A stretch of 64,000 nucleotides of DNA. It comes from Yuukianura sp. NJ FZ-2021 (taxonomy: Eukaryota). This document shows, one piece after another, positions 26,101-64,000 of the stretch (the stretch's first letter is position 1; each line of letters starts with the position of its first letter). The DNA lies in contig JAJCTO010000010.1 of the NCBI GenBank assembly GCA_046563655.1, positions 372,001-436,000 on the forward strand, in the 5' to 3' direction. The notes beneath the pieces were generated by a model. The model made no database searches and was not told the origin of the DNA. It saw nothing but the letters and a program-made list of their open reading frames with translations. The position numbers and the translations under genes were made by a program.

Positions 26101-29100
26101 ATTTCCGGTGAAATCTAATTGCAAATTCCGATTCACCGACTTGAAATTGATGTGAGTACACTATCAAAGGTGGGTATTTAGAAAGGCAGTTTTTCTAGAA
26201 TTTTGAAGGGGTTAAATTGCTCTGCAAATTCACAAAATGGCTGTATCTCGAGAAATATGGATTTCCGGTGAAATCTAATTGCAAATTCCGATTCACCGAC
26301 TTGAAATTGATGTGAGTACACTATCAAAGGTGGGTATTTAGAAAGGCAGTTTTTCTAGAATTTTGAAGGGGGTTAAATTGCTCTGCAAATTCACAAAATG
26401 GCTGTATCTCGAGAAATATGGATTTCCGGTGAAATCTAATTGCAAATTCGGATTCACCGACTTGAAATTGATGTGAGTACACTATCAAAGGTGGGTATTT
26501 AGAAAGGCAGTTTTTCTAGAATTTTGAAGGGGGTTAAATTGCTCTGCAAATTCACAAAATGGCTGTATCTCGAGAAATATGGATTTCCGGTGAAATCTAA
26601 TTGCAAATTCCGATTCACCGACTTGAAATTGATGTGAGTACACTATCAAAGGTGGGTATTTAGAAAGGCAGTTTTTCTAGAATTTTGAAGGGGTTAAATT
26701 GCTCTGCAAATTCACAAAATGGCTGTATCTCGAGAAATATGGATTTCCGGTGAAATCTAATTGCAAATCCGGATTCACCGACTTGAAATTGATGTGAGTA
26801 CACTATCAAAGGTGGGTATTTAGAAAGGCAGTTTTTCTAGAATTTTGAAGGGGGTTAAATTGCTCTGCAAATTCACAAAATGGCTGTATCTCGAGAAATA
26901 TGGATTTCCGGTGAAATCTAATTGCAAATTCCGATTCACCGACTTGAAATTGATGTGAGTACACTATCAAAGGTGGGTATTTAGAAAGGCAGTTTTTCTA
27001 GAATTTTGAAGGGGGTTAAATTGCTCTGCAAATTCACAAAATGGCTGTATCTCGAGAAATATGGATTTCCGGTGAAATCTAATTGCAAATTCCGATTCAC
27101 CGACTTGAAATTGATGTGAGTACACTATCAAAGGTGGGTATTTAGAAAGGCAGTTTTTCTAGAATTTTGAACGGGGAAAAATTGCTCTGCAAATTCACAA
27201 AATGGCTGTATCTCGAGAAATATGGATTTCCGGTGAAATCTAATTGCAAATTTGGATTCACCGACTTGAAATTGATGTGAGTACACTATCAAAGGTGGGT
27301 ATTTAGAAAGGCAGTTTTTCTAGAATTTTGTAAGGGGTTAAATTGCTCTGCAAATTCACAAAATGGCTGTATCTCGAGAAATATGGATTTCCGGTGAAAT
27401 CTAATTGCAAATTCCGATTCACCGACTTGAAATTGATGTGAGTACACTATCAAAGGTGGGTATTTAGAAAGGCAGTTTTTCTAGAATTTTGAAGGGGGTT
27501 AAATTGCTCTGCAAATTCACAAAATGGCTGTATCTCGAGAAATATGGATTTCCGGTGAAATCTAATTGCAAATTCCGATTCACCGACTTGAAATTGATGT
27601 GAGTACACTATCAAAGGTGGGTATTTAGAAAGGCAGTTTTTCTAGAATTTTGAAGGGGGTTAAATTGCTCTGCAAATTCACAAAATGGCTGTATCTCGAG
27701 AAATATGGATTTCCGGTGAAATCTAATTGCAAATTCGGATTCACCGACTTGAAATTGATGTGAGTACACTTTCAAAGGTGGGTATTTAGAAAGGCAGTTT
27801 TTCTAGAATTTTGAAGGGGATTAAATTGCTCTGCAAATTCACAAAATGGCTGTATCTCGAGAAATATGGATTTCCGGTGAAATCTAATTGCAAATTCCGA
27901 TTCACCGACTTGAAATTGATGTGAGTACACTATCAAAGGTGGGTATTTAGAAAGGCAGTTTTTCTAGAATTTTGTAGGGCGTAAAATTGCTCTGCAAATT
28001 CACAAAATGGCTGTATCTCGAGAAATATGGATTTCCGGTGAAATCTAATTGCAAATTCCGATTCACCGACTTGAAATTGATGTGAGTACACTATCAAAGG
28101 TGGGTATTTAGAAAGGCAGTTTTTCTAGAATTTTGAAGGGGGTTAAATTGCTCTGCAAATTCACAAAATGGCTGTATCTCGAGAAATATGGATTTCCGGT
28201 GAAATCTAATTGCAAATTCCGATTCACCGACTTGAAATTGATGTGAGTACACTATCAAAGGTGGGTATTTAGAAAGGCAGTTTTTCTAGAATTTTGAAGG
28301 GGGTTAAATTGCTCTGCAAATTCACAAAATGGCTGTATCTCGAGAAATATGGATTTCCGGTGAAATCTAATTGCAAATTCCGATTCACCGACTTGAAATT
28401 GATGTGAGTACACTATCAAAGGTGGGTATTTAGAAAGGCAGTTTTTCTAGAATTTTGAAAGGGGTTAAATTGCTCTGCAAATTCACAAAATGGCTGTATC
28501 TCGAGAAATATGGATTTCCGGTGAAATCTAATTGCAAATTCGGATTCACCGACTTGAAATTGATGTGAGTACACTATCAAAGGTGGGTATTTAGAAAGGC
28601 AGTTTTTCTAGAATTTTGAAGAGGAAAAATTGCTCTGCAAATTCACAAAATGGCTGTATCTCGAGAAATATGGATTTCCGGTGAAATCTAATTGCAAATC
28701 CGGATTCACCGACTTGAAATTGATGTGAGTACACTATCAAAGGTGGGTATTTAGAAAGGCAGTTTTTCTAGAATTTTGAAGGGGGTTAAATTGCTCTGCA
28801 AATTCACAAAATGGCTGTATCTCGAGAAATATGGATTTCCGGTGAAATCTAATTGCAAATTCCGATTCACCGACTTGAAATTGATGTGAGTACACTATCA
28901 AAGGTGGGTATTTAGAAAGGCAGTTTTTCTAGAATTTTGAAGGGGGTTAAATTGCTCTGCAAATTCACAAAATGGCTGTATCTCGAGAAATATGGATTTC
29001 CGGTGAAATCTAATTGCAAATTCGGATTCACCGACTTGAAATTGATGTGAGTACACTATCAAAGGTGGGTATTTAGAAAGGCAGTTTTTCTAGAATTTTG

Positions 29101-32100
29101 TAAGGGGAAAAATTGCCCTGCAAATTCACAAAATGGCTGTATCTCGAGAAATATGGATTTCCGGTGAAATCTAATTGCAAATTCGGATTCACCGACTTGA
29201 AATTGATGTGAGTACACTATCAAAGGTGGGTATTTAGAAAGGCAGTTTTTCTAGAATTTTGAAGGGGGTAAAATTGCTCTGCAAATTCACAAAATGGCTG
29301 TATCTCGAGAAATATGGATTTCCGGTGAAATCTAATTGCAAATTCGGATTCACCGACTTGAAATTGATGTGAGTACACTATCAAAGGTGGGTATTTAGAA
29401 AGGCAGTTTTTCTAGAATTTTGAAGGGGGTTAAATTGCTCTGCAAATTCACAAAATGGCTGTATCTCGAGAAATATGGATTTCCGGTGAAATCTAATTGC
29501 AAATTCGGATTCACCGACTTGAAATTGATGTGAGTACACTATCAAAGGTGGGTATTTAGAAAGGCAGTTTTTCTAGAATTTTGAAGGGGGTTAAATTGCT
29601 CTGCAAATTCACAAAATGGCTGTATCTCGAGAAATATGGATTTCCGGTGAAATCTAATTGCAAATTCCGATTCACCGACTTGAAATTGATGTGAGTACAC
29701 TATCAAAGGTGGGTATTTAGAAAGGCAGTTTTTCTAGAATTTTGAAGGGGTTAAATTGCTCTGCAAATTCACAAAATGGCTGTATCTCGAGAAATATGGA
29801 TTTCCGGTGAAATCTAATTGCAAATTCCGATTCACCGACTTGAAATTGATGTGAGTACACTATCAAAGGTGGGTATTTAGAAAGGCAGTTTTTCTAGAAT
29901 TTTGAAGGGGGTTAAATTGCTCTGCAAATTCACAAAATGGCTGTATCTCGAGAAATATGGATTTCCGGTGAAATCTAATTGCAAATTCCGATTCACCGAC
30001 TTGAAATTGATGTGAGTACACTATCAAAGGTGGGTATTTAGAAAGGCAGTTTTTCTAGAATTTTGAAGGGGTTAAATTGCTCTGCAAATTCACAAAATGG
30101 CTGTATCTCGAGAAATATGGATTTCCGGTGAAATCTAATTGCAAATTCCGATTCACCGACTTGAAATTGATGTGAGTACACTATCAAAGGTGGGTATTTA
30201 GAAAGGCAGTTTTTCTAGAATTTTGAAGGGGGTTAAATTGCTCTGCAAATTCACAAAATGGCTGTATCTCGAGAAATATGGATTTCCGGTGAAATCTAAT
30301 TGCAAATTCGGATTCACCGACTTGAAATTGATGTGAGTACACTATCAAAGGTGGGTATTTAGAAAGGCAGTTTTTCTAGAATTTTGAAAGGGGTTAAATT
30401 GCTCTGCAAATTCACAAAATGGCTGTATCTCGAGAAATATGGATTTCCGGTGAAATCTAATTGCAAATTCCGATTCACCGACTTGAAATTGATGTGAGTA
30501 CACTATCAAAGGTGGGTATTTAGAAAGGCAGTTTTTCTAGAATTTTGAAGGGAGTTAAATTGCTCTGCAAATTCACAAAATGGCTGTATCTCGAGAAATA
30601 TGGATTTCCGGTGAAATCTAATTGCAAATTCGGATTCACCGACTTGAAATTGATGTGAGTACACTATCAAAGGTGGGTATTTAGAAAGGCAGTTTTTCTA
30701 GAATTTTGTAAGGGGAAAAATTGCCCTGCAAATTCACAAAATGGCTGTATCTCGAGAAATATGGATTTCCGGTGAAATCTAATTGCAAATTCCGATTCAC
30801 CGACTTGAAATTGATGTGAGTACACTATCAAAGGTGGGTATTTAGAAAGGCAGTTTTTCTAGAATTTTGTAAGGGGAAAAATTGCCCTGCAAATTCACAA
30901 AATGGCTGTATCTCGAGAAATATGGATTTCCGGTGAAATCTAATTGCAAATTCGGATTCACCGACTTGAAATTGATGTGAGTACACTATCAAAGGTGGGT
31001 ATTTAGAAAGGCAGTTTTTCTAGAATTTTGAAGGGGGTTAAATTGCTCTGCAAATTCACAAAATGGCTGTATCTCGAGAAATATGGATTTCCGGTGAAAT
31101 CTAATTGCAAATTCCGATTCACCGACTTGAAATTGATGTGAGTACACTATCAAAGGTGGGTATTTAGAAAGGCAGTTTTTCTAGAATTTTGAAGGGGTTA
31201 AATTGCTCTGCAAATTCACAAAATGGCTGTATCTCGAGAAATATGGATTTCCGGTGAAATCTAATTGCAAATTCGGATTCACCGACTTGAAATTGATGTG
31301 AGTACACTATCAAAGGTGGGTATTTAGAAAGGCAGTTTTTCTAGAATTTTGTAAGGGGAAAAATTGCCCTGCAAATTCACAAAATGGCTGTATCTCGAGA
31401 AATATGGATTTCCGGTGAAATCTAATTGCAAATTCCGATTCACCGACTTGAAATTGATGTGAGTACACTATCAAAGGTGGGTATTTAGAAAGGCAGTTTT
31501 TCTAGAATTTTGAAGGGGGTTAAATTGCTCTGCAAATTCACAAAATGGCTGTATCTCGAGAAATATGGATTTCCGGTGAAATCTAATTGCAAATTCCGAT
31601 TCACCGACTTGAAATTGATGTGAGTACACTATCAAAGGTGGGTATTTAGAAAGGCAGTTTTTCTAGAATTTTGAAGGGTGTTAAATTGCTCTGCAAATTC
31701 ACAAAATGGCTGTATCTCGAGAAATATGGATTTCCGGTGAAATCTAATTGCAAATTCCGATTCACCGACTTGAAATTGATGTGAGTACACTATCAAAGGT
31801 GGGTATTTAGAAAGGCAGTTTTTCTAGAATTTTGAAGGGGGTTAAATTGCTCTGCAAATTCACAAAATGGCTGTATCTCGAGAAATATGGATTTCCGGTG
31901 AAATCTAATTGCAAATTCCGATTCACCGACTTGAAATTGATGTGAGTACACTATCAAAGGTGGGTATTTAGAAAGGCAGTTTTTCTAGAATTTTGAAGGG
32001 GTTAAATTGCTCTGCAAATTCACAAAATGGCTGTATCTCGAGAAATATGGATTTCCGGTGAAATCTAATTGCAAATTCCGATTCACCGACTTGAAATTGA

Positions 32101-43105: not shown

Positions 43106-43205
43106 NNNNNNNNNNNNNNNNNNNNNNNNNNNNNNNNNNNNNNNNNNNNNNNNNNNNNNNNNNNNNNNNNNNNNNNNNNNNNNNNNNNNNNNNNNNNNNN
43201 NNNNN
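43106..43205. other. Assembly gap (100 N)
   Basis: Exactly 100 N, typical of a scaffolding placeholder, so the true distance between the satellite and the right-hand contig is unknown. Confidence 0.99.
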
Positions 43206-48462: not shown

Positions 48463-48858
48463 TCAATTATTTCTGTACACAGTACATCCAACATCGGGAA
48501 ATATATTATTACGGCTTCTAAACCTATCATCCTGGGATTGGTGTAGGTCGATAAATACATGACCATACTGTTTTTTCATAACGTCATCATAGCACGTTTT
48601 CAAAGCTTCGTTCCGTTTTCCGTTTTTTGTTAGCTGACGTCCAAAGCAGAGAACTTGAGAGACTTCTCGAGGTTTTTTTGTGAAACAAATATACTGGCAA
48701 TTTGTTGTTATCGTTCGTTGTCCTTTCTCGAAGAAGTTTTGGGTGACGAAAATTATGCTCACATTCCTGTGGTGGCTCGTTCTAGTAAATGCTGAGACGA
48801 TATCCTTACTAGCACAAACTTCATGCATAAGATCGTCAAGTACGACAAGTACTATGGA
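48463..48858 (-). pseudogene. C-terminal part of a Polinton/Maverick-type (A32/FtsK-like) genome-packaging ATPase, 5'-truncated
   Basis: Walker B VLVVLDDLM, then FTRTSHHRNVSIIFVTQNFF, GRQL and YGHVFIDLHQSQDDRFRSRNNIFP, matching my recollection of Maverick ATPase motifs. The upstream part of ORF 48463..49050 has no Walker A. Confidence 0.85.
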
Positions 48859-49642
48859 CATGATGTCCAATGAGAGGTGAGGGTAACTTCCGTCGTACTG
48901 GATGCGACGACTGGTCACATGGGTGACATGATGTAAAGTTACCTCTGAGTTGTGTTGAAGTGAGATGATGAAGAGTGGATTGGAGTGGCGGTCGATTTCC
49001 CACTGATGGACGACGAGGTCAAGGGTCAGATCGGCTGCTCCAATGTCCACTTTCGGACCAAGACGGTCATGAGGAACTGGTCACTTACAGTCACTGATTG
49101 ATTGAAGTCCAGTTCTGGAAGCACTGAGTGTTTCAAGAGTCAGAATGTAGCACTGGCGGCCATCTTGAACACGAGGAGGGGAGACACTATTTTTGATTAT
49201 TCGGAAAATTATGTTCATTTAAGAATGAACTTTTAGGAATGAAATTCGGAGAAAAACCAAGACGGAAACTCCGAATAAATCAGGGCTTTTAACCCTTATT
49301 TTAATTAACAGAACGTTAATTAGAGAAGAACAATTAGCTAATTTAAGGAGGTCTAAAGGTGAGAAAACTAGAGAGAGGCATGACCGTACAACTCTAGATC
49401 TAAGTTGACTCTGAATTAGACAGAAAAAGTGAACAAAACGGAAACTAAACTAACTGCGTAGTTAGGAATTTGGGTGATGCAATTCTGGAGAGCGGCTGTG
49501 CGCATGTCAAAAAGTGGGAAATTTAAACCGAAAAAGGGGTCTAAAATTAAGTCTAATTTTAACCTACAGATGGGGTTAGAAATTTAGAAAAAATGAGAAT
49601 TGACGCTGTCAATTCTACAAACAATAAATGGAATAGAATGGA

Positions 49643-51272: not shown

Positions 51273-52283
51273 TGTAACGCCGGATTTTGAGCCACCTCCA
51301 AATCAATCAATTGATTTGGAGTTGGACCGAATTCGTACGCCTAATTAGTTAAGACAAAACTAGTTAAAACCGGGTAAGAGACATGTCGAGTATGCAGATT
51401 GATAATTAAGGAAAGTTTTGAAATTGAGACAGGAGGTCTCAAGACTTATGATAAGAAAAAGGTGATTTGACAAGTCCCTTGGACTTGTCATGTAAAACAA
51501 CTTGCTCAGCAAGTTTGACATCTGTCAAACATGGGGTGTCCACTCGCAAGAGAGTTGATTCTCCCATTCAAAATCCCTGTTTATCAATTTGCATAGGATC
51601 GTAACTTTGTGCAATCTTGGACATTAATGACAAAGCTGGATCTTAAATCCTGGTCATTAACGTCCAACTTTGAACTCAGGTCGCTAAGCGTCCCTCAGCT
51701 GAAGGACAGTTCAGGTCAAGTGTAAGGTTATAAATATAAGCGGAACCTTGTTAGCATTAAGTCATTTCTAGATTAGCTTTTGGCTAAGCTCTTTCTCTCT
51801 CTCAGATCAGTTGACTAGATTGTAAAATTGCTCTTTAGAATAAGTCTTTTGGGGAACAATAAATACTCTTCCGGGAATTTCTCTCCACCGTTCGTCAATT
51901 CCTCGTCTTAGAAGCTTGCACATCTGCCACCGTCACTTTCGCTGATTCCGCTGTTCAGGGTTCAACTGGTGTCAACCGTAGCTGACCAAGGTAAGGGAAT
52001 CTTCCCTTTTCATCCAGGGTTTAGAAAAACAGTAGAAGCACTTGAAGATTCATACACTAGATGATGTGGGTTGGTGGGACCAGCCCCACCCAACGTAGGT
52101 CATGAGTTAGGGGAAGTCTTAAGGGCCCGGAAGGGTCAAAGGGTTAGGTCGCGAGAGGGGTGGCAGGTATTAGACCTGCAGAAGCTAGGAGCATCAGCGT
52201 AGCCCAGTCGTTTTCAGAGAACGACTGAACAGAAATGTTAAAGTAGAGACTTTATTAAACGCTAAGAAAATCACCCCGTTTCA
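51273..52283 (+). mobile_element. ~1.0-kb LTR, probably the 3' LTR of a truncated LTR retrotransposon
   Basis: Starts TGTAACG and ends CGTTTCA (imperfect terminal inverted repeat). A purine tract (ggggaataa) lies immediately upstream, with TATAAATATAA at ~51729 and AATAAA at ~51858. Copia coding sequence begins right after the CA. The flanks (aataa / ctaac) are not a TSD. Confidence 0.6.
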
Positions 52284-52999
52284 CTAACTGCAACCACGTC
52301 CAAGAATTGAAACGTCGCCCCTATTGCGCCAAATGTAACAAACGCGGTCACTGGGCAAGAGAATGCAGAAGTCGGCAACCACCGCCCTATTACTACAGAT
52401 CAGCCGAAGCTTACGATGACTACTACGAGCCGTACAACTACCCTACGCATTACAACTCATATCAAAGCCAGACTCCAGATTTTGAATTCATTGCTTCAGA
52501 TCAAAGTCAACCCAGCTCAAATTTATTCAGCCCACCTAGTTCACCAATAAATCAGCATCATCAGTGCAGCAACCAAGGGATCAAGCACTACGCACCGTCT
52601 TCCCGCAGCGGCTTCCTAGCCGCAGACATCCCGAATCACAATGGTAGCGACTTCACATGTTACAGCGACTCTGGAGCCTCACAGCATTTTTGCGGGAACA
52701 TATCACTACTCAGCAACTACGAAGAATTTAAAACGCCACTGCCAATTCACCTTACTGACAATCGCAACGCATACGCCCTAGGAAAGGGGACCATAGCAAT
52801 TAAAGCTAAACTTGGAAATGAATGGCGAAACTGCACACTTACCGACGTTTGGTACATTCCAAATTCTGTCAACTTATTTTCCGAAATTGTAATGGTCAAG
52901 CAAGGATTCTCAATCCAACGCGACATCAACTCTTCATCGACTCGCTAGGCAAAATTGGACCATCAGCAGCACTTCGTGGAAATATTTACGTAATGGATT
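52284..52999 (+). pseudogene. Ty1/Copia gag-protease fragment
   Basis: CCHC knuckle CAKCNKRGHWAREC, Copia protease motif SDSGASQHFC, and GKGTI...LTDVWYIPNSVNLFS. Frameshift near 52930. Bounded by LTRs on both sides. Confidence 0.88.
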
Positions 53000-53270
53000 T
53001 GTAGCGGGACGGTACACCACCCACACCCACCCCCACTGGACAACAGGTGTAATACACAATCTAACGTAAGGTAGATTAGGCAGATGTGTGTCAGTCTTTA
53101 TCTGGAAGTGAAATAAAGAACTTCTCAAAGTAGATCTCTCTGGACGCAAGGTCCACAAAGCAGTTTAGATCACATTTTAATGAGTAGTTCAGCTTCCGGT
53201 CACGGGTCACAGGTCATCTCATCACTCAGCCACCCCGGTCTGCCGCACGTGACGACTTGGTAGCCAGCCG
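53000..53270 (+). promoter_or_regulatory. Putative 5' LTR (~257 bp) and primer-binding site
   Basis: TG at 53000 where Copia coding sequence stops, AATAAA at ~53112, and PBS-like TGGTAGCCAGCC at 53258 (the first 7 nt match the 3' end of initiator tRNA-Met). The LTR 3' end is not a clean CA. Confidence 0.55.
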
Positions 53271-53963
53271 AACATCGTTTCCAAAGGAATCGCAGTCAGA
53301 AGAAGACAAAAATCATCACTTCAAAGGCCAAAAAACAAAGGTACACATACCAAAATCTCAAAAAAAAATTCAAAGGCAGCATAATCATTGACCGACATAA
53401 CCCGGAAATCGAATTGAAATCGTGACCTCGAAGGTCAGAAGCGTCGGAAAGCACCTCAGCGTAGCAGCCGCCATTTTGGAAAAAATTCCGAAAAAGAAGG
53501 GGAAAAAATAGAGTCCTTCACAGTCAACGACCCGTTAAAGACAGTTGATTTGCATATCTCATTATCTCCTTTCATAACGGTAACTCAGTAGAGTAACCGA
53601 CAGAAGACGAGACAACAAAAACATAACGGACAGTTCAGATTAACTTTTTTTGCAATTCCACTGGAATTGCAGGGCAAAAAAAAAAGCGAAAGCAAAGCAA
53701 AAGTAAACATAAACACACGCAGCCAGTGCGGACGTAGAAGTAGACATCCTGCGTCTCTTCGTTCACTTTCAATTGCACAATTCCTTTTACAAACAAATTT
53801 AAAAAGTAAATTTGGAAAAAACTAAACAAATTAAACAAATTAAAAATAAAATTCAAAACGGAATAACGCAAAAACGTAATCCTACGCTCTATTAAAGAAA
53901 AAATTGAAGTCCTTTTACAAAAAATTATTAAAAAACAACGTAAAATCAAAGTATTACGTTAAA

Positions 53964-54465
53964 AGGTAGCCCAGTAGGGCAAGCTAAGAATCAAGGTAAC
54001 ACAGTAGTGTAACCTCTAAGGTAACTCAGTAGAGTAACCTAACAAAAGGTAACCCAGTAGGGTAACCTCAAGGTAACGCAGTAGTGTAACCTCAAAGGTA
54101 ACACAGTAGTGTAACCTCAAGGTAACGCAGTAGTGTAACCTCAAGGTAACGCAGTAGTGTAACCTCAAAGGTAACACAGTAGTGTAACCTCAAGGTAACG
54201 CAGTAGTGTAACCTCACAGGTAACACAGTAGTGTAACCTCCAAGGTAACTCAGTAGAGTAACCTAACCAAGGTATTCCAGTAGGGTAACCTCAAGGTAAC
54301 TCAGTAGAGTAACCTAACAAATAGGTAACCCAGTAGGGTAACCTCAAGGTAACACAGTAGTGTAACCTCAAAGGTAACACAGTAGTGTAACCTCCAAGTA
54401 ATTCAGTAGAGTAACCTAACCAAGGTAACCCAGTAGGGTAACCTTTAAAGGTAACCCAGTAGGTT
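53964..54465 (+). repeat. Tandem array of about 20 stem-loop units aggtaacNc-agta-gN'gtaacct in the Gypsy leader (one more copy at 53578-53599)
   Basis: A 22-nt core with 2-8-nt linkers. N/N' is always A-T, T-A, C-G or G-T. Confidence 0.93.
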
Positions 54466-54576
54466 AGGTTAGCCTAACCAAAACCTAACCAAAATCAACA
54501 ACAATTAGATCAACAGCAAATTGATCAACAAGAAACAGAATACAAAAAAGACCTTCAACGTCTATTTGATGTCGGT

Positions 54577-56038
54577 TTGCCAGCTCCCAACCTAAATCCG
54601 GCACGTCCAAATCCAAATCCAGGACCAAGCAGCAATCCAAGTCAAGGGCAAGTCTTTTCAGACGAACAAATGGCCCAATTAACACAAATGTTCCATGTGG
54701 TAATTAATGCTGCGGACCAAGCAAAAGAAGCCAGAGCCCGAGCAACAAAAGCACAAGACGAATCTAGACAACCGTCATTAGTTCGAGGAGCCCCAGCAAC
54801 CAATCAAATTGACAGACGCTCTAATACGTCTATTGCTGGACCCAGTCAACTCGTCACACTTGAAACGCTGACGGAAGCACTTCAAACAGTGAGATTGACT
54901 TCAGTCAATTCACAAATTCCAGCTCCGAAATTTAATCCAAAAAAATCAACAGCAGAATCGTTTCTCAAGGATGCAGAACGATATTTTACAAGTGAAGGCT
55001 TTCCACCCCAACAATGGCTGTACATGGTAAAATCCATTTTACCCCAAGAAACACAAAGCATGGTGGGAACACATCCATAATGAAACCGACACTTGGAACG
55101 GATTCAAAATTGAATTTCTCAGAAGATTCGACAATCCAGTCGAACACAGAAACAGAGTCAAATATCTTACAAACAAAGTTCAATTGCTGCATGAACCCAC
55201 AAAAGTTCATATTTACGAAATGCTCAGACTCTCAAAATTGTGTTTCCCAAATGAAACTACTGCTCAGTCACTCTTAAGAGTTCAAAACTCACTCTATCCA
55301 AGAATCAGAACCATGCTGGGAACCAAGGAGTACGACTCTCCACAAGCCTTATTTGATGACTGTCGAACAGTCCATGACAACTTGACAGCACAAGACAAAG
55401 CCACAAAAAGCAAGGATCGTCTACCACCAATTGTCGCTCCAGCAGTGAGCAACGTCGAAGAACGAAAATTCCAACAAGGTCAAAATAATTCAAACAAAGA
55501 CCAAGTGGACGATTCAAATTCAAATTCCAATTCCCGAAAAACCAATTCCCGTGGAAGAGGAAGCTACAAGGGACGATACAGAGGAAAAGGTTGAACTTAC
55601 TACAACACTCGCAATGAAAATGCTGAAACCCAAGAACAAAAAGAAACGGAAAATCCTCAAAATGAAAATTCCCAAAGAGGAAACGACAGAGGTCGATCCA
55701 ATCGGGGCAACCGAGGATCAACACGAGGCGAAAGAGGAAATCACCGTGGACGTCGTTCCAATTACAGAGGAAAAAATTTCGACCCAAATTACCACAGCAA
55801 TTATCGTGGAACCTCAGCAAATCAAAACAATTCAAATAATCAAGCCCCAGCCAGCAATTCTGACAACATTCAATGCAGAAAATGCAGAGGTTGCGGACAC
55901 TCGACAAATCAATGTCCCAACAAACAAGGCACAGCTCTAGTTACTCAGGAAGAGTACTATGAAGAGTACGACACTTATGACTCCAACATGAGTCAAAACC
56001 AACAAGCTCAAAGCTCAAACCAACAGTTAAACTGTTGA
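54577..56038 (+). pseudogene. gag: Gypsy gag (capsid plus CCHC nucleocapsid), disrupted
   Basis: PAPKFNP...FLKDAERYF...WLYMV, AWWEH...TW.GFK.EFLRRF capsid motifs across frameshifts near 55050-55085. Premature TGA at 55592-55594, RG-rich linker, knuckle CRKCRGCGHSTNQC at ~55874, stop at 56038. True start uncertain. Confidence 0.85.
56026..56032 (+). promoter_or_regulatory. Putative -1 ribosomal frameshift site G TTA AAC at the gag/pol overlap
   Basis: Gag reads CAG TTA AAC TGT TGA. The -1 frame GTT AAA CTG TTG AGG is open into the protease. Confidence 0.65.
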
Positions 56039-57363
56039 GGGAAGATAAGCCTCCAGCACCATCTTATCTTCTCCCAATCCTCAAATTTCAAAAATCCCAA
56101 GGTGCAACATCATTGATTTTATCAAAAACACCAGAAATCGAAGCCATTTTCGACACTGGAAGCGATTATACTCTAATTCACAAAAGAGTAGCCAAAAAAA
56201 TTCAAAAGAATTTCAACTTTAGCAATAATCTCACTTTAATTATTGCTAACAATCAAAAAATTCAACCAATTGGATCAGTTCGACTCCAATTCAAGATCCT
56301 GGACAAACTCATAATCACCAATGCATACGTAATGGAAACCCTTCCATTCCCGCTTATCATTGGCAAAGATGTCATGAAGAAACATGAAATCATTCTCGAT
56401 GTCTCAGGAGAAAAGTTCTGGTTTAAGTCAAAACCAGAAGACAAACTTCCAACAATATTCTCATTCAAAAATCGACAGAATGCCATTCTGTTCAGCCTCA
56501 CTTACGAACAACCAAATGGAAAAACTCCATTGGACAAAAAAGAAGCTAGAATTCTTGAAATTATTCAAAAATTCCCAGAAGTCGCCAGAGACGACAATCT
56601 GAACGGCAGATCTTACCAGACATGAAATTGAAACAGAAGGCGGACCAATTCAACTCCGACCTTACAAATATGCTCCAAACTTAAGAAACATTCTCAACCA
56701 AGAAATCGAGCAATTAATTCAAAAAGGAATGGTGAGACAGTCCAGATCCCCTTACTCAGCACCAGTCGTGTTAGAGAAAAAAAAACTCAGACAAGTACAA
56801 GCTCTGCATCAATTACATCAAACTTAACGCAAGTATGAAGAAAAACGCAGCTCCAATGGACAATTGCAACTCCATTTTACGAACAATCCCGCCAAACTAC
56901 TGGTACACTGTTCTCGACTTGAACTCAGGATTTTGGCAAATTCCAATGCATGAAAATAGCATTGAGAAAACTGCATTCATTACACAAGACGGCCACTACG
57001 AATTCCTAGTGATGCCGATGGGATTGAAAAATTCACCAAAAACATTTACCTCATTGATGAGAATCGTTTTTCAAGATTACATTGACGTTTTCATCAAAAT
57101 TTTCGTTGATGACATCCTCATTTACTCACCAACCTTGGAACAACATTAAATGGACCTTGAAAAAGCCCTGGAAAGACTCAAAGAAGCCAAATTAACAATC
57201 AATAGAATCAAATCAGTTTGGGCACAAACTGAAGTCCATTACATTGGTCATGTTGTTGGCCAAGATGGAATTACCAAACAACCTTCAAAAGTCAAAGCCA
57301 TAATGGAATTTCCAACTCCACAATGCAAACAAGACATTTTACGATTCCATGGAATGTGCGCGT

Positions 57364-57613
57364 CAAGATTGCTATAGCAACCGATTGAATTGCTACACCA
57401 GGTTATCCAGTACCTCAGGGTTTCCAAAAATCTTGCTGCAAACAACTTTTTGAACCAATTTTGAACCAATTCCCATTAGACTACATACAAATCATTACCA
57501 TAGAAAGGCACGGCGACGCAAGTTTTGCAAATTATTTGAGAAAATTAAAAACATCGACTTACTGGACAACCTGGTGTAGCATAAACAATTTGTTTGTTTG
57601 TTTACCCACCTTG
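57364..57613. mobile_element. 250-bp hAT-like MITE inserted in pol
   Basis: 8-bp TSD gtgcgcgt (57356-57363) / gtgcacgt (57614-57621), termini caag...cttg, and a subterminal 22-bp inverted repeat tgctacaccaggttatccagta / tactggacaacctggtgtagca. Removing it restores GMCAWY. Confidence 0.85.
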
Positions 57614-59955
57614 GTGCACGTGGTACGCCACCTTCATCAAAAACTTTAGTTCAAAAGCCGAACCATTACATCATCTTCTCAGAAAGAACGTAAAATGGCG
57701 ATGGGGTCAAGAACAAGAAAATGCCTTTCAAGAAATCAAAAGAGCGATGGCAGAAGATGTCACTCTCAAAACAATTGATTACTCAAAACCAATAATCATG
57801 CAATGTGATGCCTCAGAAAATGGACTCGGAGCAGTTCTTGTCCAAGAAATTGACGGCAAAGAAAGACCAATCATGTTTGCAAGCAAATCACTCAAAAAGT
57901 CAGAACGAAGCGCTCATATTCATGGGAAAGAGCTGTATGCCATAATATTTGCATATGACAAATTCAGAGAATTTATTGAAGGACACCCCTTCATAATCGA
58001 AACTGACAACAAGGCAGTCAGTTACCTAAATTCCATGCAAAACAAAAAAGCCAAACTTACAAAATGGGCAATCGCGATCACATCCTGGAACGCAACCATC
58101 AGATTCAGAAAAGGATCCGAAAACATAGTTGCAGACGCACTCTCAAGAGCCAGCCTTCCAGAAATGCAAAACGATCCCGACATGCTCCAAGACAGAGACA
58201 ATATTCTATTACCAACATTTCTACTTGTCTACTGCACTCCATCATTACAAGATATTTCAACGGAACAACGAAAAGATCCACAAATTCAAAAAATCATAAA
58301 CGAACTCAAAGTTACGAAGAATGCTCGGCCAAGCATTACTAGTAATTATGTCTTCGACAGAAACGTTTTGTTCCGAAAAATCAAACCATTCAAAGGAAGG
58401 ACTGCAACTTTACCAAAATTGACTCAAGTCAAATCAAAAATCTGTCATGAAACAATTTGTTTCAAACCAGGTTGCATCCATCCAAAGACCGTCATTACGG
58501 CACAAAAACCAAATCAAAATCAAGAGAAGACAACTGAAGAGAGGAGTCATGAACCTCAGACGCAGCCAGTCAACTCAAATTTACCCAAAAATGACAAGGA
58601 TCCTAACATAAATCAAGAAAAAACCATGGTACCAGTAATTCCAGAAACTATGAAAACAAAAATAATGGAAATCTTCCATGACTCCCCAGAAGCCGGACAC
58701 TTCGGGAGAACAAAAACTCAAGAAAGAATCAAACAAAGATGCTATTGGAATAACATGAACAGAGAAATTGCAGAATATGTCAAAACTTGTGACAAATGCC
58801 AAAAAGTAAAAATCTCAAATAGGAAACCCTATGGAGAATTAGGATTTGCAAAACCGCCATCCGAAGTATTCGGAACAATACATGTTGATTATCAAGGTCC
58901 ATTTCCAACAAGTGCGGGCGGAAAACAAAGCAAATATTTACTCGTCGTTCTAGACGAACTGTCAAAATGGGTTGAACTTTTCCCCATGACAGCGGCAACT
59001 GCAAAGAAAACTGAAGAAATACTGGAAGATCAAATCTTCTGCAGATTCGGATCTCCACACACAATAATCTCAGACCATGGACCTCAATTTACTTCCAACA
59101 TAATCGCTGATTTATGTGAAAAATGGAAAATCAAACATAAAATGATTGCTGAGTACCATCCTCAAGCCAATCAATCTGAGAGAACCAATAGAAGCATCAA
59201 AACAATGATTCAAGCATACATTGAAGAAAGTCATCACAAATGGGACCAAAACATTCAAAAATTCGCTCTAGCATTACGCACAGTCGTAAATGAAACAACA
59301 AAAGTCACCCCAGCATTATTAAATCTGGGAAGGCAAATTCCATTGCCATTTGACAGAAATTTACAACAAAGTCCAACTCAGGTTGACTTAAACCACGCTC
59401 AAAAAGTTCCAAATGAACTTAAAGAATTAATTGAGTACGTGAGAGCAAACATGGAAATAGCCCATGAGAAAAACCGAATGTATTATAACAAAAGTCACCG
59501 TGATGTGACATTTAATGAAGGAGACTTCGTCCTCATTAAAACGCATATCCTATCCAGTAAGGATGAAGGGATTGCACAAAAATTATCCCATAAATGGGAA
59601 GGTCCATACAAAATTGGCAGTAAAGCCACTCCAATTACTTACGAAATAGTAAGAATTGATGACAATTCTCATGTAGGGAGACGGCATGTTTCCCAAATTA
59701 AACAATATTTTGTCCGAAAAATAAAACAAAAAATTAATCAAAAGAAAAATGATTCAGTTCCGTTGAACGATGAATCTGAAAACTTACCAAGACTTAGACA
59801 AAAACAAAGAGTCAATTATCGCACGCTCGCAGGTTATCACCGCTAAGCGCGAAACCGGAAACAAAAACACAAAAAATTCTTTCCAAATTCCAAATACCAT
59901 ATCAATGTGAGAAATCACAATCCAGAATTAATTAACTTTAATTCCTCAATTTCAG

Positions 59956-60714
59956 ATGGCAACTCCATGGCTAAAACTGAAAGCAGAAATGGAAAAAAAA
60001 TACGGAAAAGCCAAAACCAGACCATTCTACAATCCGAAATTCCAAGGATTCCGAAATTACTGTATCCAAAGAAACAAGGACGGCTACGACATACAGCAAA
60101 ATCCGAAACTTGCCGAAATGACCAAATTCCACATCACAGAATCAATGTCAACATACAAAACTGGTCAAAGTATCAAGGATGACAGAGCTACCACTCCAGT
60201 CATCATTCCTGGAAAATATTCCGAATTCAAAAAGATGCTGGATGACCTCAAAATTCAAGAAGAAATTGCATTCGACACTGAATTTTCTGACGGAACAGAT
60301 CGAGCCTACTTTGGTCATACGTACCCGGCACTTATTCAAATCTCAACACAAGAAAAAGATTACGTGATCTGCCCTTTCCAATTTGGCGAAAAAATACAAG
60401 AACTCAAACAAATATTTGAAAATCCTAACATTATCAAAATCGGATTCGACCCTAAAGAAGATGTCAAAAAACTGAACTTGTTTTACAAAATATTCCCCGT
60501 CGGAATCATTGACCTACAGCGAGCCTATTACAAATTCCCACAACCTCCAGACGAACCAGAACGTCAAAGACAAGAAAATTACTGGAGAGTAATTTCCACT
60601 CTCATTCCAAATGTTGAACCAACCAATCTAAAAGCAAAATCCTTGTCCTGCAGAACAGAAACCGTCTGGAACACTGTGCGGGAGAATCAACTGAATAGAT
60701 TTCTGCTCAAATAA
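59956..60714 (+). CDS. ORF3: DEDDy 3'-5' exonuclease (RNase D/RRP6/WRN-like), C-terminally truncated at ~60640
   Basis: ExoI IAFDTEF, ALIQIST..KDYVI, LKQIFENPNIIKIGF, ExoII EDVKKL, IIDLQ. ExoIII (YxxxD) is absent, and the last ~25 codons appear to come from the adjacent LINE fragment. Confidence 0.85.
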   Translation: MATPWLKLKAEMEKKYGKAKTRPFYNPKFQGFRNYCIQRNKDGYDIQQNPKLAEMTKFHITESMSTYKTGQSIKDDRATTPVIIPGKYSEFKKMLDDLKIQEEIAFDTEFSDGTDRAYFGHTYPALIQISTQEKDYVICPFQFGEKIQELKQIFENPNIIKIGFDPKEDVKKLNLFYKIFPVGIIDLQRAYYKFPQPPDEPERQRQENYWRVISTLIPNVEPTNLKAKSLSCRTETVWNTVRENQLNRFLLK

Positions 60715-61765
60715 AGGAGATTCTGCAAAATTCGCTAGTTGCCCTCACTAACCAAATTCAGCATACTCAGCGTCTGGGTAAGTCAACTGCTCAAACTCCA
60801 AACAAACCATTCAAAATAATCTTCCAATCTCTGGACACCAGGAATACCTTCTGGAGAAATCGGATGCGTGTCAAACAACCATTTCCAGCTCTCAGGATTA
60901 ATCATGATCTCGCACCTGCCACAAGAAAAAAAGGTAGCTGCCAAACGACAGAACCTAACCATCAATGCTAACGAACAATACAGACACAACGTCAACACTC
61001 CAGCCCAGACTACTACATTCGCTCAAAACCCTGGCTTCGTACAATGCAGCACGACTCCACGATCAGCACCGTTGTGATAACCAGCTACAACACAACGTCG
61101 AAAAGTCAAGTATGAGCTTAATATCGCTCAATTGAATATGCGCTCATATTCAAACAAATTCTCCAAAGTGTGGCATCTTCTAAACCTACATAATATCGAC
61201 ATACTTTGCTTATGTAGTCCGGCCTGGATAGCTCGGTGACTATATTCTCTATTGGTCATTCGAGTTAAATAAGTGTGCTAGGGCGAGGAGCTTGGATGGG
61301 TACCCACCATGGTCTTGTCTTTCTTTGAGCTAGGTGTTTCAGCCTAGCACCGGCATATGCGAGTGTCTCCTAGTGTGTTTTTCACTGTGGTACTCAGAGA
61401 CCAAAAGGTTTCCCACTAGGCGTAGCGCGAATGCAGGACACTCGTTCCTGTCCATCGTGCAGTTAGTAGAAGCAGAGTAAAGACTCACCGAAACCTGGAC
61501 GGCTTCAATTAGTAGAAGTAGCGTAAAGACTCATCGAACACTGAAGGGACAGGGCTAGGAGGGGGTCTTCCCGGTAACCGGAGCCTGCCATGGGCTACGG
61601 GCCCGTAGGGTGGGTAACCTCGAAAGAGGTTGGACATGATATAAAAAAAATACTTTGCTTATGTGAAACCTGGCTCACGCAAAACGTCACGAAAACCGTT
61701 CCTCCCGGATACTCAATGTGCAGAAACAACCGAATTCACAAAACAGGATGAGGAGTCTGCAAAAG
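60640..61765 (+). pseudogene. CR1/L2-like LINE fragment: end of ORF1 and start of the ORF2 AP endonuclease, split by a SINE
   Basis: My translation gives QRLGKS...KPFKIIFQSLDTRNTFW...LRINHDLAPATRK (~60700-60930, ORF1 RRM-like), then LNIAQLNMRSYSNKF...IDILCLC|ETWL...PPGYSMCRNNR...G*GVC (~61117-61760, APE motifs). Confidence 0.8.
61216..61649 (+). mobile_element. ~434-bp SINE-like retroposed structured RNA
   Basis: Perfect 15-bp TSD atactttgcttatgt (61201-61215 and 61650-61664), A-rich 3' tail, and a tRNA-like head ggcctggatagctcggtg. Confidence 0.85.
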
Positions 61766-61821
61766 AACAAAAAAGGTTGGTTTCGGATTTTGGGTCCAAC
61801 TTCGAGCAAGGAAATGAAAAT

Positions 61822-61918
61822 GAAGGCGGTGTCCCGACATCCTGGAAATCCGGCATAGTCATTGGCATGAGTTGTAGAATCAGTGTAAAAAAAATTGAGA
61901 TGTCGGGACACCGCCTTC
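61822..61918. repeat. Perfect 20-bp inverted repeat around a 57-bp spacer (mini-MITE-like)
   Basis: gaaggcggtgtcccgacatc (61822-61841) / gatgtcgggacaccgccttc (61899-61918). Confidence 0.75.
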
Positions 61919-62300
61919 TAACCTAAAAGTGCCACCAAAGTTGACCATATTTCGATGGAAAAAATCAAAACTTTCGTTTCTTTCTGGTGCAAAATAGTTT
62001 TTAACACTTGCGTGCACATTTGCACAACTGAAATAAACAGGGAAAAAAAAACAGGTTTTACTGTTTGCACAATTTTAAAATATAGATTTTTTATGCACAA
62101 TTTTATGCTTTTGATGTTTCCTAGGAAACGATTCGTTTCATGAAATGTTTGTTAAGATGTGTCCACTTTTATGAATTTTAAAAAACAAAAATCTCAGTTC
62201 GTTTCCAGTTTCCGACTTGTACGGAAGTGAAAAAATCTTGTCCACGAAAGGTTAATTAAAAAGTTCTTTTAAGAACTAAGCTGAACGAACTTACCCAAAA

Positions 62301-62841
62301 ATGGGACGCTGGGAATGTGAACAATGTCTGCGAAAGTTACAATCTAATCAAAGGAAGCACGTTTGTGATGGGAAATCGATTTGCACAAGGTGTTATGTGA
62401 CTCTGCGTGAAGCTTCAGGCTCTATTGGTCGAAAGTTAAGAATTGGTAAGTTCAAAAATACTCGAGAATGTTAAATTATGGAAATGAAGTTGCGGATTTC
62501 GAATCATTATTGACTTTTTCTTTGCTGTAGCCATTGCTTCCAGCAAACCTATTTTGCCAGTTCGGCCAATCACAAGAAGCCAAGCCAATTTTCACAATAA
62601 TGAGGAAAATGAAGATATCGAAGAAAATGCTTCCATGGACATTGACAGCCAACAGTTCTCCGCTCATTCCCAAGGTATAAAATGAAAAATCTGTTCTTTG
62701 TGTTGGAAATACTGTATGTCAAAGTACTAAACTTTACAATTTCTTTTCAGATGTTTCACTTCCCGACTCAAACCAACCCATGTCGCCATCTTCGGGAGAA
62801 GACAGTTATGACCATTCTCAACTTTCGAATTTTTCTACACT
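62301..62841 (+). CDS. Spliced gene (exons 62301-62445, 62531-62674, 62751-62841+) encoding an N-terminal CxxC...CxxC zinc-finger-like protein, interrupted by an LTR element
   Basis: ATG at 62301 gives MGRWECEQCL...KSICTRCY. Two GT-AG introns of 85 and 76 nt, both phase 1, keep the frame open (AIASSKPILPVRP...HSQDVSLPDS). Branch-like tactaa in intron 2. Confidence 0.65.
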
Positions 62842-63054
62842 TGTAATGTACGTAAGAAACTACGTAATTATAGAAACTAGTTATTTCCAGTTTAGGCATC
62901 ATTGCTGATGCAACTTTCCTCCCACCTTTCTTAGCACGTAAGTCTTAGCTATAAAAGCTCGAGCTCTCTCAAGCACTTCATTCTATTCTCACATAGAATC
63001 GGCCCAATAAACACACACTCTTCTTTTCCATACACCACACATTTTGGCGACGAG
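62842..63054 (+). mobile_element. 5' LTR (62842-63041, 200 bp) and PBS of a Mag-like Gypsy element
   Basis: TG...CA termini, TATAAAA at ~62950, AATAAA at ~63006, PBS TGGCGACGAG at 63045-63054. Confidence 0.85.
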
Positions 63055-63119
63055 AGTAAAAGCCCAAAACTCATCCCTCTTTTCCAGCAATACTTGCCCA
63101 ATTATTCCAGGACAATAAC

Positions 63120-64000
63120 ATGGCCACTGCTATTGTTGGAACCCTAAAACCCTTCGATTCATCAAGCGATGATTTTGAAGATTGGGTGGATGTCTATAAG
63201 TCATTCCTCGTAGCGAATGGACTTAGCTCAGAATCCACTGACGCGGACGTGCAAAAGAAACGCGCCGGCATTTTTCTTTCGTCCCTAGGCATATCCACAT
63301 ATTCCTTGCTAGTGAATCTGCTATCACCAATTTCACCACTCAAGGCGGAGCTTAAGACCTTGATCACAACCCTGCAGAATCACTTTAAACCAGCCCCTAA
63401 AGCCCTCGCAGAGAGATACAAATTCTCATTACGGAAACAGCGCCCAGGCGAATCCGTATCCGCATTTCTCGCAGCCCTGCGAAAAATGGCAATCACGTGC
63501 AAGTTTGGTACCAACCTCCCAAACCACTTAAGAGACCAATTTATCTTTGGCTTAACAAGCGAGCGTGCCCAGAAGGCGGTTTTCACTAAAGAGGATGAGG
63601 TGACCTTGGAGGAGGTTCTCAAGGTCGCGGTGTCGCACGAAGCTGCGGATACCAGTGCAATGGTTATACGTAATCCAAACACCTCAGAGGTAAATTTCGC
63701 GTCCACGGCACGTCGCCCATTTCAGACACCACATCGTGGTAGGGGGCGTGGCCGGGGTGGCCCACAGAGGGGTAGCGCCCAATCACGACCTTCTGGAGCC
63801 CAGCCCTCCAGAAATGGTCAATGTCCAAACTGCGGCTCCAAGGCCCACAGTACCGCTCGCGACTGTCCACACAAGGACGCAGAGTGCTTTGCATGTGGCA
63901 AACGTGGCCACTTCAAGAAAATGTGCCGGAATGGCAGGAAACCCCACACAACCCACACGGTAGGTCAGGACACTTCGGAGAACTACGTCTCGAATGTGAA
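63120..64000 (+). CDS. gag: Gypsy (Mag/K02A2.6-like) gag, open to the window edge
   Basis: My translation: MATAIVGTLKPFD...AERYKFSLRKQRPGESVSAFLAALRKMAITCKFG...LRDQFIFGL...CPNCGSKAHSTARDC...CFACGKRGHFKKMC. It is absent from the ORF track, presumably because there is no stop within the window. Confidence 0.92.
   Translation, partial: MATAIVGTLKPFDSSSDDFEDWVDVYKSFLVANGLSSESTDADVQKKRAGIFLSSLGISTYSLLVNLLSPISPLKAELKTLITTLQNHFKPAPKALAERYKFSLRKQRPGESVSAFLAALRKMAITCKFGTNLPNHLRDQFIFGLTSERAQKAVFTKEDEVTLEEVLKVAVSHEAADTSAMVIRNPNTSEVNFASTARRPFQTPHRGRGRGRGGPQRGSAQSRPSGAQPSRNGQCPNCGSKAHSTARDCPHKDAECFACGKRGHFKKMCRNGRKPHTTHTVGQDTSENYVSNV

Follow-up and report, generated by a model that had tools for sequence, protein, structure and literature searches.

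A decayed Ty3/Gypsy copy whose lineage very probably carries an Rrp6-type exonuclease gene behind integrase

The extra genes of long terminal repeat (LTR) retrotransposons are usually env. Why, then, does a Ty3/Gypsy element carry an open reading frame (ORF) for a DEDDy 3'-5' exonuclease in that position? The question is raised by a 64,000-nt stretch of DNA (contig JAJCTO010000010.1, positions 372,001 to 436,000, from Yuukianura sp. NJ FZ-2021), which we call the window and number from its first letter. A preliminary description of its sequence had noticed that this frame, ORF3, follows the end of pol and resembles RNase D and RRP6, and had read it as a captured nuclease belonging to the element. 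To our knowledge, enzymatic ORF3s are rare in LTR retrotransposons.

We found that the window holds a decayed Ty3/Gypsy copy, and we conclude with high confidence that its lineage carries an Rrp6-type DEDDy exonuclease gene directly downstream of integrase. What carries this reading is homology, the order of the domains, the conserved catalytic residues, a linkage to pol that recurs in other sequences and a clear separation from cellular RRP6, all of which we demonstrate below. What the intact protein would do is a separate matter, which we take up at the end.

The exonuclease gene and its place behind pol

The stop-to-stop frame of ORF3 runs from 59932 to 60714 on the plus strand; its first ATG lies at 59956 and the predicted product has 252 aa. 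The stop codon of pol occupies 59844-59846, and the spacer before the ATG measures exactly the 109 nt first reported. The region reads as follows.

57585 to 59846, plus strand: pol part with RNase H and integrase, an open frame of 753 aa that ends ...RVNYRTLAGYHR before its stop
59847 to 59955, plus strand: spacer of 109 nt between pol and ORF3; ORF3 lies in the +1 frame relative to pol
59956 to 60596, plus strand: ORF3 remnant, made of an N-terminal extension (59956-60213) and the Pfam exonuclease stretch (60214-60525), through ExoI and ExoII
60597 to 60714, plus strand: tail of the ORF3 open frame to its stop, from the adjoining repeat; no homologue aligns

ORF3 matches the Pfam family DNA_pol_A_exo1 (E 8.2e-18; bit score 65.2, cut-off 23.6), its residues 87-190 aligning with profile positions 6-108 of 173, about 60% of the domain. 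Because the match stops at profile position 108, the last third of the exonuclease (EXO) domain is missing. The two catalytic motifs that had been recognized by eye are both in place, ExoI as D107-T-E109 and the ExoII aspartate as D169; the ExoIII motif, YxxxD, is not in this truncated copy. The exonuclease is the only significant Pfam family in ORF3, which shows no features of an env-type membrane fusion glycoprotein, and a word-index search with ORF3 gave no match. With eight full-length relatives as queries, tblastn confined the ORF3 homology to 59938-60537 and found no coding sequence for ExoIII, for the HRDC domain or for the CCHC knuckle of those relatives elsewhere in the 64 kb.

Where the gene is cut can be placed quite closely. 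Alignments of homologues to ORF3 end at 60528-60537. We also aligned contigs of three public sequencing runs to 57000-62000; two runs (X1 and X2) come from one sample, the third (X3) has another organism code and belongs to another study. An X3 contig ends at 60595 while X1 and X2 contigs begin at 60597, and the word depth in the three runs passes from 98/89/4 in the bin 60507-60673 to 295/295/20 in the next bin. We place the break at about 60596, or ORF3 residue 213, and the proposed loss of ExoIII at a junction with another repeat is supported. Only residues 1 to about 213 survive, with the N-extension, ExoI and ExoII, and the window copy cannot make an active enzyme because the rest of its gene has been replaced by an unrelated repeat.

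The preliminary description had leaned on a shared A-rich composition of pol and ORF3. This composition is real (AT skew 0.22-0.39), but it spans about 53000 to 61200 and so covers the downstream repeat as well; composition alone therefore cannot assign ORF3 to the element. The assignment is carried by other copies and other sequences instead. In fact, contigs from both studies bridge the boundary in versions that differ from the window: an X1 contig (59110-60251; 12 differences, 6 gap positions) and an X3 contig (58832-60009; 17 differences) each run from pol across its stop into ORF3, and a second X3 contig (60097-60595) differs from the window at 36 positions. The bridging X1 contig has a word depth of 94, against 17 for the contig that spans the locus-specific junctions, a contrast that hints at several copies, although depth is not itself a copy number.

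Next, the order of pol followed by exonuclease recurs in four other sequences, a metagenome locus (L001) and the proteins P0009, P0028 and P0280; their pol shares 30-42% identity with that of the window. L001 is the one locus returned by a metagenome scan with a single protein, a 3573-nt contig that encodes P0010. Over 569 columns, the integrase encoded in its first 1656 nt shares 42% identity with that of the window (E 3e-143); its last residues read ...RVNYRTLAGYKN, those of the window pol ...RVNYRTLAGYHR. Past a single stop and 36 nt further in the same frame, an ATG opens the full ORF3 of 532 aa. In P0009 (810 aa) a pol C-terminus at residues 3-163 (E 8e-20) runs in one frame into ORF3 at 168-353, and in P0028 (1261 aa) a pol C-terminus at residues 342-476 (E 4e-24) precedes ORF3 at 529-711. 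Both halves of these two proteins are collinear with the window; they are the only 2 of the 150 exonuclease matches listed that have a pol part. P0280 was reached from the other side. This protein, annotated as 'Retrovirus-related Pol polyprotein from transposon 17.6 [Orchesella cincta]', aligns with 98% of the window pol at 37% identity. Among the 120 pol matches listed it alone carries PF01612 in precomputed Pfam annotation, and its C-terminal part matches the ExoIII region of P0028 at 60%. Thus ORF3 does belong to the Gypsy element. That it is an ORF of its own in the env position holds for the window and not throughout the family, since in some relatives the exonuclease is fused in frame to pol.

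The best matches to the window pol are in metagenome contigs (41-49% identical). P0280 is the first named one, and the named matches after it come from Folsomia candida, ticks and spiders; these nearest named relatives, springtails and ticks, suggest from sequence an arthropod host line. Neither the window pol nor a pol alignment found a relative in viral_contigs. As a separate observation, the C-terminal pol residues RVNYRTLAGY are conserved in the window (59800-59846), in L001 (1620-1656) and in the consensus of nine related pol proteins, and may be a processing or junction motif at the boundary of pol and ORF3.

The spacer hints at how ORF3 may be expressed in the window's family. Its 3' end reads ...ttcctcaatttcag, with tttcag immediately before the ATG; this resembles a splice acceptor and suggests splicing as a possible route. 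Other copies in the aligned contigs have small indels at 59873-59877 (one a 5-nt deletion, one a 2-nt and a 4-nt insertion), none of which puts ORF3 in frame with pol. ORF3 of this family probably has its own start codon.

A family close to RRP6

A phmmer search with ORF3 of 1.84 billion representative proteins gave 303 matches at E<=1e-3, 19 at E<=1e-10 and 1 at E<=1e-30. That last one, a 341-aa protein, is 40% identical over query residues 11-194 (E 1.4e-32). Many of the top matches start near their own residue 15-30, which means that the N-terminus of about 85 aa is conserved together with the nuclease. The full-length proteins, of about 500-600 aa, share one architecture: first the N-extension of about 85 aa and the DEDDy EXO domain, then a helical domain that Pfam recognizes as HRDC, a linker that is acidic, variable and disordered, a gag-like CCHC knuckle (CxxCxxxxHxxxxC) and a basic, helical tail. 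In the alignment the N-terminal block holds P, N, P and W positions that are invariant or nearly so. HRDC follows EXO in the full-length relatives and belongs to the part that the window copy has lost.

We classified 68 of the 150 listed matches, counting as element-type those without a PMC2NT domain whose EXO begins no more than about 125 residues from the N-terminus or else immediately behind a pol part. This gave 39 element-type proteins, 17 with PMC2NT and 12 ambiguous ones; of the 82 left out, most are shorter or score lower, and the truncated P0002, P0005, P0008, P0012 and P0024 are among them. Pfam recognizes EXO in 39/39 of the element-type proteins, HRDC in 16/39 and PMC2NT in 0/39, a zero partly built into the definition. 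In one Pfam scan PMC2NT was seen in 10 of 43 proteins, all of the long cellular type. With the window added, the family comprises 40 rows, which are representatives at the 50% clustering level and only 22-35% identical to the window ORF3 in pairwise comparison. Even so, the catalytic residues hold: at ExoI, D in 39/40 and E in 37/40; at ExoII, D in 36/40 (E in three rows, H in one); at ExoIII, Y in 38/39 and D in 37/39. The intact YxxxD missing from the window is thus present in its relatives. The CCHC pattern occurs in 17/40 rows, all of at least 480 aa.

Which cellular nuclease is the nearest kin? A profile built from 15 family members matches yeast RRP6 at E 1.3e-68 over profile positions 51-417, and a profile search of a collection of named proteins returned RRP6/EXOSC10 of fungi and animals, at E of about 1e-65 and below. 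Other DEDDy proteins follow at a distance: RNase D (2e-25), Mut-7/Nibbler (3e-24), a CCHC RNase D of T. brucei (8.6e-15), Egalitarian (7.5e-12), DNA polymerase I (7.5e-7) and WRN (1e-4). The knuckle region of the profile weakly matches Drosophila Arc1 (3e-4). The match to human EXOSC10 starts already at profile position 24, and the N-extension therefore corresponds to the segment that precedes EXO in EXOSC10. The N-terminus, which had been called unknown, is in truth conserved across the family and has a cellular counterpart.

Structure prediction agrees. The AlphaFold model of the full 532-aa P0010 (mean pLDDT, the predicted local distance difference score, 81.6) is mostly above 85 for residues 11-380, disordered for residues 381-454, and at 82-92 again for the knuckle and tail; it predicts a soluble RRP6-like fold. 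Foldseek places trypanosome, yeast and human RRP6 cores on top (E 1e-22 to 1e-20 over 326-346 columns; TM-scores to the target of 0.43-0.69), with RNase D (2e-14), Nibbler (3e-10) and EXD1 (6e-8) further down. The ESM Atlas returned RRP6-type clusters only, at a score of 0.87 that is under the reliability level. The label RRP6-like was thus well chosen: RRP6/EXOSC10 is by far the best solved relative, by profile (1.3e-68) and by fold (1e-22).

Is the gene then a copy of the host's own RRP6? A maximum-likelihood tree of 69 rows (LG+G4) sets the 40 element-type rows apart by a branch with a Shimodaira-Hasegawa-like approximate likelihood ratio (SH-aLRT) of 100. On the other side stand the 17 PMC2NT-bearing RRP6 proteins (fungi, Bradysia, Thrips, Pristionchus and others) and the 12 ambiguous rows; a 34-row tree under a mixture model, with the ambiguous rows dropped, gives the same split at 100. 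Within the family, the window ORF3 is sister to P0001 (97) in a group of 20 rows (99), to which the pol-linked P0010, P0009 and P0028 belong too. The separation therefore argues against the element having recently picked up its host's EXOSC10, though it neither dates nor roots the family. Judged from these sequences, the exonuclease is an old element-borne lineage and not a recent capture of host RRP6.

The decayed copy and its neighbourhood

Upstream of ORF3, Pfam recognizes the Ty3/Gypsy set of aspartic protease, RVT_1, RT_RNaseH, Integrase_H2C2 and rve. The order gag with CCHC, protease, reverse transcriptase (RT), RNase H and integrase (IN) holds along 54478-59846, the CCHC match being below curated cut-offs. 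The parts that precede the open RNase H and integrase frame are these.

53960 to 54490, plus strand: tandem array of about 20 copies of 24/25-nt units, directly upstream of gag (repeat search and self-BLAST)
54478 to 56035, plus strand: gag region, frameshifted, in three overlapping frames (54478-55077, 55031-55591 and 55595-56035)
55981 to 56622, plus strand: aspartic protease (Asp_protease_2 E 8.1e-5; RVP E 2.8e-4)
56603 to 57377, plus strand: reverse transcriptase in two frames, with a frameshift near 56800, ended early by a nested insert
57361 to 57618, no strand assigned: nested high-copy insert of 258 nt in the reverse transcriptase (the joint 57360>57619 skips 258 nt in all three runs)

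The array is probably the 5' untranslated leader of the element. Neither of the first two gag pieces (54478-55077 and 55031-55591) matches a Pfam gag family; the third, 55595-56035, holds a CCHC knuckle that zf-CCHC_6 detects at E 4.5e-4 (20.5 bits, with a cut-off of 22) and whose CxxCxxxxHxxxxC pattern can be read directly in the translation. RVT_1 is matched at E 1.7e-20 by 56775-57149, and the open pol part at 57585-59846 matches RT_RNaseH_2 (1.1e-31), RT_RNaseH (2.3e-30), Integrase_H2C2 (9.7e-22) and rve (9.4e-16). Word depth in the 258-nt insert is 15,000-30,000, against about 730 in its flanks; this depth makes the insert, a miniature inverted-repeat transposable element (MITE) or similar to a short interspersed nuclear element (SINE), one of the most abundant short repeats of the genome. 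Other copies of the Gypsy element are without it. With gag and RT frameshifted, RT interrupted and ORF3 cut, the window copy is dead.

Self-BLAST of 52900-62000 against the whole window found the tandem array alone, with neither an LTR pair nor a second copy of the element. Flanking LTRs with a target-site duplication were not found, and the 3' end has been replaced by another repeat, itself interrupted. No tRNA gene was found in 52000-64000.

60597 to 61215, plus strand: multi-copy, A-rich interspersed repeat resembling a long interspersed nuclear element (LINE); depth about 290 from 60674, contig 60597-61291
61216 to 61649, plus strand: SINE-like insert, about 434 nt, A-tailed, between two identical 15-nt target-site copies (61201-61215 and 61650-61664)
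61650 to 61925, plus strand: LINE-like repeat, continued, reading ETWL... after the second target-site copy and ending at about 61925

In other copies of the LINE-like repeat the SINE-like insert is missing, and the joints 61200>61650 and 61206>61656 skip 449 nt in the three runs. A loose contig end marks 61925, with differences there that the runs have in common. Just before the insert the LINE-like frame reads ...NIDILCLC, and we take NIDILCLC ... ETWL to be the usual N-terminus of a LINE endonuclease. Four frames taken from this repeat (60699-61923) match no Pfam family, even at E<=10, so that we infer the LINE label from the endonuclease motif. That ORF3 might be part of this repeat was considered and rejected: the homology stops before the repeat begins, and the relatives tie the gene to Gypsy pol.

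The rest of the window is a patchwork. From 1 to 45000 there is no open frame of at least 110 aa, and a 100-N assembly gap lies at 43106-43205. Between 46664 and 50329, open frames of 128-277 aa cluster on the two strands, none clearly assigned to a Pfam family; one of them (48466-49080, minus strand) gives a weak match below cut-off to the Pox_A32 packaging ATPase (E 0.0028), and the cluster may be a remnant like Maverick/Polinton. Just upstream of the Gypsy element, 52259-52945 (plus strand) is a Copia-type fragment with a zinc knuckle and a Pol_BBD beta-barrel (E 1.8e-17). At 63060-63998 another LTR-element gag begins, with a CCHC knuckle, a weak PNMA-like match and a G+C content above that of the Gypsy copy, and continues past the window end.

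Possible roles and known systems

Several points weigh against reading the exonuclease as a gene of this Gypsy lineage. The window has no second copy, and no LTR pair that would place ORF3 between pol and a 3' LTR; a purine run that comes soon after the ORF3 stop of L001 is at most a possible sign of an LTR. In the window's family ORF3 is out of frame with pol. The window copy is truncated and its element broken, so nothing in it can be functional. Linkage to pol is seen in four other sequences, and 36 other element-type representatives are known without genomic context. The trees are quick searches, unrooted and with many long branches, and the PMC2NT count of zero is partly circular because the element-type label itself excludes that domain. 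Moreover, the alignment of a commoner sister family (about 85% identical in pol, with a depth of about 640-680) breaks off near the end of pol, at about 59591-59710. One contig of that family extends for another 910 nt that do not resemble the window, and the family may lack ORF3 or carry a diverged one.

Could the fragment be a host EXOSC10 paralogue or retrocopy, set beside the Gypsy copy by chance or by insertion? The window copy has no LTRs bracketing ORF3, the gene lies 109 nt from pol and in another frame, and cellular RRP6 is the nearest known family, all of which such an origin would account for. It would leave unexplained that an integrase C-terminus followed by the exonuclease recurs in L001, P0009, P0028 and P0280, that differing contigs from two studies bridge the boundary, and that the family branches apart from cellular RRP6 (SH-aLRT 100), without PMC2NT and with a retroelement-like CCHC knuckle; nor are there poly(A) or duplications in the sequence flanking ORF3. 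We give this origin almost no weight. A processed host gene in particular was rejected, given the recurring pol linkage and the absence of flanking poly(A) or duplication.

If the gene belongs to the element, what would the intact protein do? We tentatively propose, from sequence and with confidence a little short of even, that it is an exosome-independent 3'-5' exoribonuclease with an auxiliary role in replication at RNA 3' ends. In this scheme the nuclease would be made either as a C-terminal extension of Pol, through an in-frame fusion or a single stop as in the relatives, or from its own start as in the window's family. The N-extension packs on the EXO domain as it does in RRP6/EXOSC10, and the knuckle and basic tail would hold the nuclease on the RNA or particle of the element. 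There it would trim or clear RNA 3' ends, be they leftovers of RNase H, the primer or tails added by the host.

The last of these substrates leads to a counter-defence role, in which the nuclease would strip host-added 3' tails (uridylation or adenylation) or degrade or trim the precursors of PIWI-interacting (piRNA) or small interfering RNAs (siRNA). A free-standing Rrp6 core without the domain that docks to the exosome at the N-terminus would suit this role. So would the same pairing of DEDDy and CCHC in T. brucei RNase D (PDB 7c42-7c4c), which was solved with U12 RNA and UMP according to the entry titles, and which we take to trim oligo(U) tails. Nibbler and EXD1 are relatives by fold, but far behind RRP6 both by profile (Nibbler/Mut-7 3e-24 vs 1e-68) and by structure (Nibbler 3e-10 and EXD1 6e-8 vs 1e-22). 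A role in silencing was raised as a possibility for bdelloid ORF3 in the main text of PMC5408684, which also gives no clear link of that ORF3 to copy number or transcription. By analogy with these nucleases the counter-defence role is conceivable, and we consider it unlikely. A broader version, that a widespread, hitherto undescribed, arthropod-associated Ty3/Gypsy clade has an exosome-independent Rrp6 paralogue (EXO-HRDC-CCHC) that is loaded by its knuckle onto RNA or particle of the element and counters RNA surveillance by the host, either through removal of 3' tails that the host adds or through destruction of precursors of silencing RNAs, we hold to be distinctly unlikely; if true, it would mean a retroelement-encoded anti-silencing nuclease.

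DEDDy domains also proofread or trim DNA 3' ends in family-A polymerases and WRN, and by analogy the nuclease could act on the 3' ends of the element's cDNA. Its Pfam family is in fact the proofreading domain of polymerase A, and it lies in one frame with pol in P0009 and, across a single stop, in L001; fused to pol, it would sit beside RT and IN. Yet the nearest proteins by sequence and fold are RNA enzymes, RRP6 and then RNase D, whose arrangement of HRDC with EXO the family has, whereas DNA polymerase I and WRN match at only 7.5e-7 and 1e-4. We find a DNA role quite improbable. EXD1 and Maelstrom serve as RNA-binding or structural proteins that have lost an enzymatic role, and the family might by analogy have done the same. 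A few rows do have substituted catalytic residues, such as ExoII D to E in 3/40, but each DEDDy position is kept in 36-39 of 39-40 rows despite an identity of 22-35% to the window ORF3, and a non-catalytic family seems to us very improbable, even if bdelloid ORF3s are reported with DEDD changed to DEED in the main text of PMC5408684.

How does this nuclease compare with known systems? From what is known of insect errantiviruses, their env is likewise an extra frame downstream of pol, possibly reached by splicing, as may be the case for ORF3. Errantivirus env is a membrane glycoprotein, however, whereas the ORF3 product is predicted to be a soluble nuclease and is fused to or in frame with pol in relatives. 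With RRP6/EXOSC10 the family shares the N-extension, the DEDDy EXO domain, HRDC and all catalytic residues. It differs in its 0/39 PMC2NT, the domain that ties cellular Rrp6 to Rrp47 and the exosome (the zero being in part definitional), in having a CCHC knuckle and basic tail as its C-terminal region, in being encoded by a retroelement and in standing on a branch apart from fungal, insect and nematode RRP6. The T. brucei RNase D, deposited as a 'CCHC-type domain-containing protein', likewise joins a DEDDy EXO to CCHC (fold E 2.7e-8), but is far more distant than RRP6, without HRDC in the matched part, and cellular. Nibbler/Mut-7 and EXD1 have the DEDDy fold in common with the family; their matches are much weaker than those of RRP6 and the domain order is not shared.

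The window copy itself is a dead fragment without functional importance. Its lineage matters more: in a set of Gypsy elements whose nearest named relatives are in springtails, carrying a DEDDy nuclease behind pol is a lineage trait, and offers a concrete case of a mobile element with its own gene for an RNA 3'-end nuclease, of which P0010 is a natural intact protein.

The closest precedent is the one to which the preliminary description had pointed, and it is indeed in print. The main text of PMC5408684 (Rodriguez, Kenefick and Arkhipova 2017) describes a DEDDy ORF3 in the bdelloid rotifer LTR elements Juno and Vesta, and also in Athena/Terminon; it reports a closer relationship among the bdelloid ORF3s than between them and cellular RNase D, Mut-7, WRN or Rrp6, and states that DEDDy exonucleases in retrotransposons were unreported before. 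Passages of two later papers repeat the bdelloid DEDDy ORF3 as the known case. Our search for an arthropod Gypsy element whose ORF encodes an exonuclease or HRDC turned up nothing beyond the bdelloid work and its citing reviews, within a literature that excludes Repbase and most subscription journals. As described there, Juno and Vesta likewise carry a DEDDy ORF, and not env, downstream of pol, as do the window and L001, and as P0009 does in fused form. The host line appears to be different, the nearest named pol relatives here being springtails and ticks. The window family has HRDC, a CCHC knuckle and an affinity to RRP6, while the words HRDC, zinc and arthropod are absent from the main text of PMC5408684; the comparison of the two sets is one of descriptions, not of sequences. 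Thus this kind of ORF3 is known from rotifers, and the Gypsy lineage of the window gives it a wider distribution and a fuller architecture than in the literature searched.

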